Below are positions 33,726 to 47,370 of a DNA stretch of 48,364 bases, one piece after another. Source of the DNA: Polyangia bacterium (GTDB lineage Bacteria; Myxococcota_A; Polyangia; Palsa-1104; JAEUJZ01); NCBI GenBank assembly GCA_044228505.1, contig JBGAUT010000014.1:78725-127088 (forward strand), in the 5' to 3' direction. The translations under genes and the position numbers were made by a program. The notes beneath the pieces were generated by a model. That model searched no databases and was not told the DNA's origin. It saw nothing but the letters and a program-made list of their open reading frames with translations. Positions within the stretch are counted from its first letter, which is position 1, and the number at the start of each line of letters is the position of its first letter.

Positions 33726-34364
33726 GTGGTGGCTAAGCTATTGCGATCACGTCCTTCGGTAAACTCGATCGAGCCGCAGCCTCGAGTGTGTCCTGCGTGC
33801 AAGCGCCCCAGCCAGACCGTCGGTGAGCAGTTCTGTCCGCATGACGGAGCCATCCTGATCGACGCTGTGGAACTCGCGAACGCACACAACGACCCACTGC
33901 TTGGTCGCCGCATCGAGAGCTTTGCGATCGTGGCACGACTAGGCGAAGGCGGTATGGGCACGGTCTATCGTGCAATCCAGGTCGGCATGGATCGCGAGGT
34001 CGCGCTCAAGATCCTGCGATCCGATCTGGCGCACGACGGCAAGGTGGTGCAGCGATTTCATCAAGAGGCCCGCGCTGCCGCCCGGCTATCGCATCGAAAC
34101 CTCGCCACGGTGTTTACCAGCGGTAGCACGAGCGACGGTTTCTACTACATCGCAATGGAGCACCTCGATGGACCGCCGCTGGAACATGTGATTGCCGCGG
34201 CATGGCAGAGCCGCAACCACATTCCGACGTATACGTTGGAACGCCCCCGAGCCATGCGGCTGTGGTGTCAGATCGTAGCAGCACTCGCGCACGCTCACCG
34301 CTTGGGAATTGTTCACAGGGCACAAGGCGTAGCTGTCGCAGCGATGGCATCAATCGAAAAGTGA
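33726..34364 (+). pseudogene. 5' fragment of a Ser/Thr protein kinase gene. Codes for a Zn-ribbon-like N-terminus and kinase subdomains I-VIa, and ends at ...HRLGIVHR just before the catalytic loop.
   Basis: GEGGMGTVYRA (Gly loop), VALKIL, HRNLATVF, YYIAMEHLDGPPL, HRLGIVHR are present. HRDLKPxN, DFG and APE are absent, and the frame stops 14 codons later. A convergent gene begins 40 nt downstream. Confidence 0.7.
34310..34320 (+). repeat. 11-bp sequence TGTTCACAGGG (codons V-H-R) at the break of the 5' kinase fragment. It is the left copy of a direct repeat pair.
   Basis: Identical 11-mer at 47269-47279. Confidence 0.5.
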
Positions 34365-34403
34365 GCGGCTGTGGAAAGCCAGAGGAAGCGTCGTACGGAA
34401 TCC

Positions 34404-35846
34404 CTATCCAACCACGTACGAACAGACTCCGGTCCGTGCGTTACACAGAGTCGGTGCGCAGCAGTCTGAGTTTTGCGTACAACTACCGCAGGTTCCCCCC
34501 TTGCAAGCCTGTCCACCGCAGTCCTGACACCTGCTACACATTCCGGAAGATCCTCCGCTCCCTCCACCGTTTGTGCCGCATTCCTGTGAGGCGTTTAGGA
34601 TGGCGACATCGTGGTGAATCAGAACTTGTGCGCTCGGATTGAAGCTACCGACGAAGATTGCGCCGAAGACCTCCAGCGCTCCTGAAGTCACCAAGGCAGA
34701 GCTGGGAGCATAGATGTTGCCGCCAATCACACTTCCCGCCGCCAAGTTGATGTTACGAGAGCCTCCCATGTAGAGACGGACTCGAGCCGGTGCGTTCTTG
34801 TTGCCAAAGTTTAACGGAGCCGCGCTGGTCAGGCCGCCATTGATGAACAGATCCAGCTCGCCGCTTGGTCCCAGGTTCACCGCAAACAGATCGGTCAGAT
34901 TGACGTCACCTCCGATGAACAGAGCCGTCCGCCCGGTGATGTTGAGCGTCACTTTTCCTTGACCGCCAATCCGGTTTAGGTAGAAGCGACCGCACGGCAG
35001 GTTCAGCGTCTGATCGCCAGCGTAGTTGGTAAGTCGCGCCGGATCGAGCGGAACCGAGGCATTGTCATTGCTGGTACTGCGTGCAGTCACATAGCCCGCA
35101 ATATCAAAGATGCTGTTCGCAGCGCAGTCACAAGGAGGTGTCACAGAGACTGGGGCCCGCACGATCGATCCGATGGTCTGACTCGGTGCGTTCAGTGTTC
35201 TGGTGCTCGGATAGGTCAGTGTATTGGTGATCTTGAGCGAGCCGTTGCACTTCACATCTCCGCCAATCTGCGCGTTCTTCCCAACGGTCACGGTTGCATT
35301 CCCAGACAGCGTATCACTGGTCAAAAGGTCACTGCCGACAACCAGATCGTTGAGCGTCACCGCGCCCGAGACTTGCAGATTCCCTCCGACCGAAAGTTTG
35401 TTACTGACGTTCACATTCGAGTTCATCCCAGCAGAACCACCGGTGCCAAACGTGCTGCTGCCCACTTGGGTACTATCAAACGCATCGATCGTAATGGCCG
35501 AGCTTGCAGAGAGCCCATTACAGAGACACAGTCCGTAGCGAAACGCGGTCGCCGCAACCTGTCCGCTACACCGCGCTGCGCTCCCGCTCGTATCGGTCAC
35601 TACGATCGGGGGACCACTGCCGCTACAATAGCCACTCTGTCCGCCACCGTCTCCACCATTGCCTCCGGTGCCACCATCATAAAGGAGTCCTCCGCCCGTG
35701 GACAGATCCCCCGCATCGGGATCGGTGCCGCCGACTTGACTGCCATTACAGCCATGAACGAACGAGCCGAGCAGGAGTCCGCAAAAAAGCGTTGTGACCA
35801 CAGGATGACGACTTGGGAAGATCATTCGAGTTCTGGATGTTTGCAT
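34404..35846 (-). CDS. Secreted Gly-rich beta-helix-like protein (bactofilin/adhesin-like G-x-V-x-G repeats) with a single C-terminal Myxococcus cysteine-rich repeat (CSRCQDCGGQACKGGTCGSCTQNSDCCAPTLCNARTGVC)
   Basis: Signal-peptide-like MIFPSRHPVVTTLFCGLLLGSFVHGC. The start is ambiguous (GTG 35873 or ATG ~35846). The C-terminal repeat matches the repeat family of the giant lipoprotein at 1-3980. Confidence 0.55.
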   Translation of the reverse strand: MQTSRTRMIFPSRHPVVTTLFCGLLLGSFVHGCNGSQVGGTDPDAGDLSTGGGLLYDGGTGGNGGDGGGQSGYCSGSGPPIVVTDTSGSAARCSGQVAATAFRYGLCLCNGLSASSAITIDAFDSTQVGSSTFGTGGSAGMNSNVNVSNKLSVGGNLQVSGAVTLNDLVVGSDLLTSDTLSGNATVTVGKNAQIGGDVKCNGSLKITNTLTYPSTRTLNAPSQTIGSIVRAPVSVTPPCDCAANSIFDIAGYVTARSTSNDNASVPLDPARLTNYAGDQTLNLPCGRFYLNRIGGQGKVTLNITGRTALFIGGDVNLTDLFAVNLGPSGELDLFINGGLTSAAPLNFGNKNAPARVRLYMGGSRNINLAAGSVIGGNIYAPSSALVTSGALEVFGAIFVGSFNPSAQVLIHHDVAILNASQECGTNGGGSGGSSGMCSRCQDCGGQACKGGTCGSCTQNSDCCAPTLCNARTGVCSYVVG

Positions 35847-47050: not shown

Positions 47051-47229
47051 CCTCTGTCACGGAATTTCTGGATATCACCAGAGTTCCGTACCGTTAGGCA
47101 CGTGCAGCGAAGGTAGGTTTGGGGTCGTTCTTACTTGTCGGAAAAGGGGGTCATCTGTAGGCTGGCAGGCACCAAGCAACGTGTCATCTGTCCAGCCACA
47201 TCGCCCGGTCATTCCTCTCATTTCCGACG

Positions 47230-47370
47230 ATGAGGAATGAGCCATCGACGCTCCTCCGAGTCGCATTCTGTTCACAGGGATCTCAAGCCCGATAAGATCG
47301 AGCACGCCGAGAAGCTCAGCAGAGACTTCCTACCGCCGTCTGAAAATCGTCGGGAAGTCTGCGAATGAGA
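47230..47370 (+). pseudogene. Decayed kinase remnant: a 46-codon ORF MSHRRSSESHSVHRDLKPDKIEHAEKLSRDF... containing a catalytic-loop motif (HRDLKPDKI) and a collapsed DFG region
   Basis: HRDLKP is encoded in-frame beginning at the right copy of the 11-bp repeat (47269-47279). There are no upstream subdomains I-V, and the frame stops after 30 codons. Confidence 0.45.
47269..47279 (+). repeat. Right copy of the 11-bp direct repeat TGTTCACAGGG (codons V-H-R of the kinase remnant)
   Basis: Identical to 34310-34320. Both copies use the rare AGG Arg codon. Confidence 0.5.

Follow-up and report, generated by a model that had tools for sequence, protein, structure and literature searches.

Splitting of a Hanks-type kinase gene of a Polyangia bacterium at a tyrosine-integrase attachment core

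A kinase gene in two pieces

How does a protein kinase gene come to lie in two pieces, 12.9 kb apart, with the same short sequence at both broken ends? The question is raised by a stretch of 48,364 nucleotides from a Polyangia bacterium (contig JBGAUT010000014.1 of assembly GCA_044228505.1, positions 78,725 to 127,088), hereafter the window, in which the pieces of a Ser/Thr kinase gene enclose a block of eight genes. An earlier reading of the letters by themselves (the sequence-only reading) had seen in the block an island integrated into the gene, or recombined between kinase paralogues. Comparison with related genomes and metagenomes leads to a more specific answer: the 11-nt repeat at the broken ends is the core of a site-specific recombination site, not a target-site duplication. 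Recombination at an integrase attachment (att) site probably split the gene; the block would then be an integrase-less unit of an array, and a second event would have taken away the C-lobe of the kinase. In window coordinates, the features at the two broken ends are:

33726–34320, plus strand: 5' part of the split Ser/Thr kinase gene, Cys-rich segment and N-lobe (Pfam Pkinase; identity to relative L001 ends at 34320)
34310–34320, plus strand: left copy of TGTTCACAGGG, an attL-type core, with the codons Val-His-Arg and the G of Asp
34321–47268: block of 12,948 nt between the repeats ('island A'), eight genes (Pfam, NCBIfam)
47269–47279, plus strand: right copy of the 11-nt repeat, an attR-type core
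47280–47295, plus strand: further kinase nucleotides, ATCTCAAGCCCGA exactly and then TAA, codons D-L-K-P-D-K, with nothing further of the catalytic loop remaining (part of the 26/27 match to L001 1069–1095)
47296–47358, plus strand: 'F arm' of ~60–70 nt ending in CGTCGGGAAGT, from the second breakpoint on (alignment to the second junction of L003)
47666–48364, plus strand: start of an intact paralogous Ser/Thr kinase gene (1027 aa in L005; Pfam Pkinase E 4.5e-46)

The open reading frame (ORF) at 33726–34364 encodes the first half of the domain of a Hanks-type kinase (Pfam Pkinase positions 3–122 of 263, E 2e-15), with a Cys-rich, zinc-ribbon-like segment ahead of the N-lobe. Kinase homology runs as far as ...AHRLGIVHR (34319/34320) and gives way to 14 unrelated codons leading to a stop at 34362–34364. 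Beyond the block, the frame from 47269 encodes VHRDLKPDK, then unrelated sequence, with a stop at 47368–47370. Exactly two copies of TGTTCACAGGG are present in the window, at 34310–34320 and 47269–47279 and both on the plus strand; shuffled sequence holds 0.01 copies on average, and two copies were seen in 0 of 100 shuffles.

The window junctions are pieces of one kinase gene because a near-identical relative, L001, carries that gene uninterrupted. Its orthologue (P0013) reads ...GGAATTGTTCACAGGGATCTCAAGCCCGA... at this place and GGAATTGTTCACAGGGATCTCAAGCCCGAGAAC across the break point, and has the complete catalytic domain (Gly-rich loop, VAIK, HRD loop, DFG, APE) that the window ORF lacks. 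The left flank and N-lobe match L001 with 87% nucleotide identity over 969 nt, a match that stops at 34320; on the far side of the block, window 47269–47295 matches L001 1069–1095 at 26 of 27 bases, the first 24 of them exactly. Much of the sequence-only reading is thus borne out: the kinase is split, one 11-mer stands at both junctions as the crossover point of two pieces contiguous in L001, AGG is a rare codon (5.4% of Arg codons in the window genes), and the search for an uninterrupted kinase in relatives has its answer in the empty site of L001.

Presence and absence of the block at an otherwise uninterrupted bacterial attachment site (attB) can be compared directly in L001 (intact) and L014 (occupied). 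L001 1–1079 and L014 8081–9159 are 100% identical up to the last base of the 11-mer core; past it, L001 continues into the C-lobe and a DUF2252 gene and L014 into the 12.9-kb block. L001 (ERZ724510) and L014 probably come from one assembly series, and L014 is of the same strain type as L003 (99.5% identity). The left junction has the same position in the window, L002, L003, L014 and L122–L124, and the right core copy with its left context CCGAGTCGCAyTCT is kept in L003–L008. Almost all of the closest homologues of the N-lobe fragment (58–96% identity, many samples) break after HR, HRD or HRDL, each of the broken ones continuing into a different downstream sequence. In L121 (1470–1490, 77% nucleotide identity) the kinase is cut a few bases later, with GTTCACCGGGATCTG before the cut and CGACGG after it; Peptidase_S41 and unrelated genes follow and the left flank differs as well, one more junction partner at this hot spot.

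The 3' remnant had been described as decayed. Mutational decay does not account for it: 13–16 nt of kinase sequence remain after the right repeat and end sharply at a second breakpoint (~47293–47299), of a kind that recurs elsewhere. Neither the window nor its 3.7-kb extension from L005 contains the C-lobe or DUF2252; they do not lie within 10 kb in L003 or L123 and are absent in all occupied loci searched, and a search for C-lobe remnants at the left end of the block gave nothing significant. The C-lobe appears to have been either displaced beyond the window or lost. The intact kinase at 47666 is there, as had been pointed out, but as context only: with 40% identity to P0013 it is not the missing half.

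An attachment core on the codons of a catalytic motif

What, then, is the 11-mer? In L002, with its extensions L122–L124, a phage-type tyrosine integrase gene lies directly beyond the right-hand repeat of the block and reads towards it. Two metagenome-assembled genomes (MAGs) from NCBI, L009 and L010, carry an integrase 81–83% identical to it, ~60–70 nt from other kinase genes cut after IIHR or IVHR. A scan of metagenomes with the integrase returned 27 loci, 23 of them with readable sequence past the stop codon; the relatives surveyed are 79–96% identical, plus one of 55%. Eighteen of the 23 loci, the 55% relative among them, abut the N-lobe of a kinase ending ...[IV][IV]HR(D), ~110 nt away. 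These represent 14 different kinases, to which L009 adds a 15th, and the genome loci of L009 and L010 show the same integrase–kinase arrangement. Two further loci are of the phage-side attachment type (attP: element right arm–core–element left arm), two stand at non-kinase sequences containing ATCCACCGNG, and one is too short to tell.

Complete elements allow the junctions to be read on both sides. L093 (~3.4 kb) and L098 (~7.1 kb) each hold an element between the N- and C-half of one kinase, flanked by core repeats, with the gene halves undamaged. In L098, attL reads GTCCAC-AGGGG and attR GTCCAC-CGCGAC; strand exchange must therefore lie within GTYCAC, and the right-hand Arg codon can come from the element. 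The contig L011 is circular, because its 127-nt ends are identical; at 6,361 bp it carries the integrase, a helix-turn-helix (HTH) repressor and the attP sequence TTGA-GTTCACAGGG-GGTCTG. A true attR on the orthologous kinase is found in L013, where the E right arm, GTTCACAGGG and ACCTCAAGCC... are followed by an open C-lobe and DUF2252, and in L092 a full element is followed by an attP-type junction, i.e. a tandem copy or a circular form. The attP core occurs as GTTCACAGGG, GTTCACCGCG and GTTCATCGAG; the window kinase matches GTTCACAGGG perfectly, and the kinase type of attB is a GTTCACAGGGATCTC-type sequence. From the association of integrase and kinase, the complete elements, the circular form and the attR of L013 it follows that the 11-mer is a tyrosine-integrase att core situated on V/I-H-R-(D) codons. 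The intact paralogue (47666 on) has an unoccupied HRD site, GTTCATCGAGAC at 48059–48070, matching core variant GTTCATCGAG (L110).

This identification bears on the origins that had been considered for the repeat. A transposon with an 11-bp target-site duplication, a chance repeat or recombination between kinase paralogues could appeal to the direct 11-nt repeat itself and to the abundance of kinase paralogues, and yet such origins are now scarcely credible. Neither a transposase (Pfam and NCBIfam of the window genes) nor terminal inverted repeats at the block ends, for which a search had been advised, were found (score 17 against a shuffle mean of 15.7). The repeat and the 13 bases after it are exact in the orthologue (24/24), the neighbouring paralogue has other codons at its HRD site (GTTCATCGAGACTTGAAGCC), and the same position is used beside an integrase in at least 14 other kinases.

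A mechanism can be proposed on this basis. Elements of the E type, a family of small integrative elements (3.4 to ~11 kb), encode the tyrosine integrase and carry an attP core that mimics Val/Ile-His-Arg-(Asp) codons. The integrase would recombine attP with the HRD codons of Hanks-type kinase genes, exchange taking place inside GTYCAC, and each integration would leave a core copy at both ends of the insert. The orthologue of the window kinase is a hot spot that has received several different inserts in relatives.

Several observations bear on the E elements themselves. L111 and L114/L115 show one kinase occupied at one codon in different samples with different left arms (GGACTTTTTACG... and GACCTTTTTGCT...), and are independent integrations at one site. 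In L109 (~655) the integrase adjoins a non-kinase ORF, ...VYYFGHGSTDANRP..., with ATCCACCGCG in another frame, and in L094 (~1956) it adjoins apparently non-coding sequence, in which a stop codon shortly precedes the core; recognition by the integrase is therefore at the level of DNA, not of protein. The cargo of the elements in L010/L100 (2248–5630) and L009 (1749–9067) includes an OLD/TOPRIM ATPase and a UvrD helicase, forming a Gabija-like defence pair, and also a GGDEF protein, an MqsA-like antitoxin and a DEAD/ResIII helicase. The element of L122/L123/L124 (2400–8000) is riddled with copies of IS66 (TnpA/B/C) and IS21 (IstA/IstB) and has a 1.8-kb integrase module as the sole part shared with the circular L011. 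Among the small ORFs of L011, the 337-aa ORF right of the paralogue and the extra ORFs of L003, Pfam and PHROGs were informative for the HTH repressor only. Neither the INPHARED phage collection (at most 25% identity) nor IMG/VR contains a close relative of the integrase.

A second type of junction

The att core accounts for the inner ends of the two pieces; the outer end of the right piece is of another kind. At ~47293–47299 the window, L004 and L003 all leave the kinase sequence, and at this point L003 carries an additional 4 kb of genes. The F arm that begins at this point in the window is homologous to the sequence after a second kinase of L003, cut after HRDIKPAN (alignment score 51; shuffles with mean 25.5, standard deviation 3.5 and maximum 40). 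The motif GAGAAGTGGCGGGAAGT recurs at the same spacing in the window, in L004 (~5100–5040) and at both L003 junctions (~9550–9490 and 1830–1750, minus strand), and the F arms, ~70 nt long, end in GGCGGGAAGT or GTCGGGAAGT after a kinase cut at KPxN. The site is polymorphic, the second kinase being cut in L003 and its orthologue reading on normally in L004, and the tail of P0010, the orthologous kinase of another organism, resembles an F junction. From these alignments, F is read as a second recurrent insertion type placed after KPxN; no recombinase for it was found.

Origin of the block

The block itself contains the following genes:

34404–35873, minus strand: DUF7305 secreted protein
36166–37230, plus strand: DUF6765 protein
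37273–38073, plus strand: Rce1-like CPBP protease
38079–40442, minus strand: GH123-like protein
40477–41895, minus strand: PLD-like protein
41905–42810, minus strand: AurF-like di-iron protein
42800–44782, minus strand: asparagine-synthase-type amidotransferase (AsnB)
44789–47050, minus strand: Haem_oxygenas_2 protein (HO-like)

Homologous blocks occupy the same junction in L002, L003, L004, L014 and L122–L124, with DUF7305 and GH123 variably present among them. Just inside the left end of the L002 block (10640–10690), a short tandem repeat, GCGGAATGCAC, stands in four copies; the window block lacks it.

In the explanation that we consider probable, the block lies between an attL-type junction (N-lobe–core–block) and an attR-type junction (block–core–13–16 nt of kinase). 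It would have arrived by att recombination and would be one unit, lacking an integrase, of a tandem array at the kinase site. Not being autonomous, it could be mobilized only if an integrase were provided in trans, for example by an abutting E element as in L002 and L122–L124. The second event, junction F, 13–16 nt downstream, would then have separated the rest of the C-lobe.

A series of observations weighs against this account. Neither the window nor its 3.7-kb extension holds a recombinase or integrase (domain search of both; tblastn of the window with the family integrase), and the genes of the block are packed too tightly to leave space for one; an integrase inside the element and beside the att site, as expected of such elements, is encountered only beyond the right core in L002 and L122–L124. 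The block ends are unlike E arms, and the window has no GGGGAACGG-type E-arm motifs. The comparison of 34321–47268 with its flanks that the sequence-only reading had advised gave no signal of foreign DNA: GC content (0.571) and tetranucleotide correlation (r 0.927) fall within the range of other window parts. The block is 85% identical to that of L003 and the flank 87%, so that in L003 and L004 it is about as diverged as the flank (85–87%); this would fit a long vertical residence, not a recent import. A Polyangia MAG at greater distance, L119, has the kinase without interruption, and directly after its stop come DUF6765, PLD, AurF-like, AsnB and HO-like genes, with no direct repeats of at least 8 nt flanking them. 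L012 has the block in inverted orientation, directly against the C-lobe and DUF2252 and without an intact core; the homology of this junction to the attL and attR of the window is not significant (its score was reached in 28 of 500 shuffles). N-lobe, block and C-lobe stand together on no contig examined. A circular form of the block, whose joined ends (right end–core–left end) would read ...GAGTCGCATTCTGTTCACAGGGCACAAGGCG..., was not seen, no metagenome scan having been aimed at these ends.

The orthologous kinase of L119 (10001–11250) is spread over three frames by two frameshifts, for example an extra G in CTGGGGAATCGTCCATCGTGAC, and is called as two ORFs; the frameshifts are probably homopolymer errors of a long-read MAG assembly.

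The same observations can be given another sense. The block genes may be ancestral neighbours of the kinase, as in L119, which an integrase-driven rearrangement brought between its halves, the 11-mers being scars; an element may have integrated and then given rise to a deletion or inversion, whether integrase-mediated or illegitimate, or an aberrant excision and re-integration may have carried flanking DNA along. Such a history would suit the gene order of L119, the unremarkable composition of the block, its divergence in step with the flank in L003 and L004, its inverted position beside the C-lobe in L012, and ends that carry neither an integrase nor E-like arms. We nevertheless hold it to be rather unlikely. 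Both junctions are exact at the core, the right one together with the next 13–16 nt of the kinase, which fits an insertion at attB, not a simple deletion or inversion, and no C-lobe remnant is detectable at the left end of the block. In L002 the block is only ~70% identical to that of the window and the flank 89%, as fits an exchange of blocks between lineages, and the four-gene operon HO–AsnB–AurF–PLD is also found in L120, in unrelated surroundings. The idea of an inserted island is accordingly narrowed. Site-specific recombination at the HRD codons stands; the imported island is weaker, in view of the null result on composition and of the five block genes syntenic in distant L119, a synteny that the sequence-only reading had itself named as counter-evidence and that is found in part. 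With no integrase, no unusual composition and five genes downstream of the intact L119 kinase, a foreign origin of the block is doubtful.

Selection on the gene halves

If the gene was broken by recombination at att, are its pieces debris? The window, L002 and L003 all carry the split allele, and the ratio of non-synonymous to synonymous substitution (dN/dS) of the N-lobe is 0.07 between the window and L003 (dS 0.44) and 0.09 between the window and L002 (dS 0.65). In L012 and L013 the detached C-lobes have open reading frames, with dN/dS of 0.11–0.18. Such low ratios mean that the halves were under constraint for most of their divergence. It is possible that the splits are recent or recurrent, that they are reversible, or that the fragments have functions of their own.

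Reversibility has been given a definite form in the notion of 'regulated gene integrity', in which precise excision in some cells or conditions restores the kinase, so that both halves stay under selection. Apart from the constraint on N-lobes and detached C-lobes, this would agree with the 1,079-nt flank that intact and split alleles share with 100% identity, and with the existence of a circular form and of complete elements between undamaged gene halves. For the window it is nonetheless improbable. Recombination of one 11-mer with the other would yield ...IVHRDLKPDK followed by IEHAEKLSRDFLPPSENRREVCE and a stop, that is, an N-lobe with DLKPDK and an unrelated tail, lacking DFG and APE and not a kinase; a second precise excision, at F, would be needed, with the C-lobe elsewhere. 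The window lacks an integrase, nothing points to regulation, and the selection is equally well explained by a function of the zinc-ribbon and N-lobe fragment itself or by polymorphism of empty and occupied sites. Unlikely as well, and speculative, is a broader proposal for the class as a whole: the catalytic-loop codons of the Hanks-type kinases in these Polyangia might be a general, reusable docking site for at least two element families (E, between HR and D; F, after KPxN) acting as reversible switches. Restoration of kinases by excision would then be why the gene halves persist under selection, and the signalling repertoire, including a kinase that borders a type VI secretion system (T6SS) cluster, would vary between cells or during development.

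Gene neighbourhood

The T6SS cluster occupies window positions 5382–25000 and includes VgrG, TssG, TssF, TssA/ImpA, a TssM-like ORF of 1368 aa, TssK/VasE and others. The order T6SS–PEGA–OmpA/TSP3–kinase is conserved in L002, L014 and L119, and because of this conserved order the split kinase may belong functionally to the cluster. As the kinase borders the cluster, it is tempting to propose that its interruption may alter T6SS regulation. Between cluster and kinase, at 26563–29904 on the minus strand, lies a gene for a 1113-aa low-complexity protein rich in Ala, Lys and Gly, with GDA(K/R)(D/G)G(A/T)-type tandem repeats. This gene and the Pro/Ala-rich tail of the OmpA-like gene (~33000–33664) cause an anomaly of GC content and skew at 26–34 kb, a low-complexity region to the left of the block and the sole compositional outlier in the window.

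Significance and comparison with known systems

A class of 'truncated kinase' genes in MAGs of Myxococcota, all of them cut at one and the same codon, can be explained as att junctions, not decayed pseudogenes. For a single element, each genome would offer dozens to hundreds of potential targets, and signalling genes can be disrupted by it singly. An integrase and att pair with a short defined core and many natural variants could also serve as a recombination tool. For annotation, the lesson is that an integrase-less block between att cores need not be imported DNA.

The mechanism is a known one, that of tyrosine-integrase integrative elements; new is the class of attachment site, namely the catalytic motif of a paralogous family, and the gene that bears it is inactivated by the insertion. 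The searchable literature yielded no account of kinase genes that serve as attachment sites, which is absence of evidence and not proof. For tyrosine-integrase elements in general, a large survey, the main text of which does not mention kinases, describes tandem arrays and a core that is regenerated at either end (PMC7192596).

Integrases dedicated to one coding target are known as a clade specific for dusA (PMC4482086). Islands and prophages of the dusA type share with the E elements a phage-type tyrosine integrase near att, a short core at both ends, a conserved coding target and variable cargo (PMC4482086). Helper-embedded satellites, as described, likewise combine one integrase clade with repeated independent integrations into related coding targets, although those targets (prophage late genes), the hosts and the biology differ (PMC10111431). 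In contrast to dusA, the kinase target is the V/I-H-R-D catalytic motif of a large paralogous family, and one integrase clade reaches many genes because they share this motif. A further difference is that the kinase is not restored after integration and loses its catalytic loop and C-lobe, and that the window block lacks an integrase.

Integrase-less elements flanked by att sites and mobilizable in cis are known as the cis-mobilizable elements (CIMEs) of Streptococcus thermophilus. As in tandem arrays and CIMEs, the core is regenerated and either copy is open to a further element: L002 and L122–L124 show block–core–integrase element, L092 shows element–attP-type junction–element, and the window block has two cores and no integrase, the adjoining integrase element being present in the relatives L002 and L122–L124 only. 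The block differs from CIMEs in that its mobilization in trans is only conjectural, its ends are without E-arm motifs and its genes neighbour the intact kinase of L119.

Elements that interrupt genes and are excised in a regulated manner include the sigK skin element, the spsM element and the nifD, fdxN and hupL elements. Candidates for 'regulated gene integrity' also appear in PMC7192596. Unlike these, the window block is without a recombinase and shows no sign of regulated excision, and a single excision cannot rebuild the gene. The likeness lies in an insert that inactivates a gene, in precise excision that would restore it, in gene halves that are kept intact, and in a host phylum that is multicellular and developmental.

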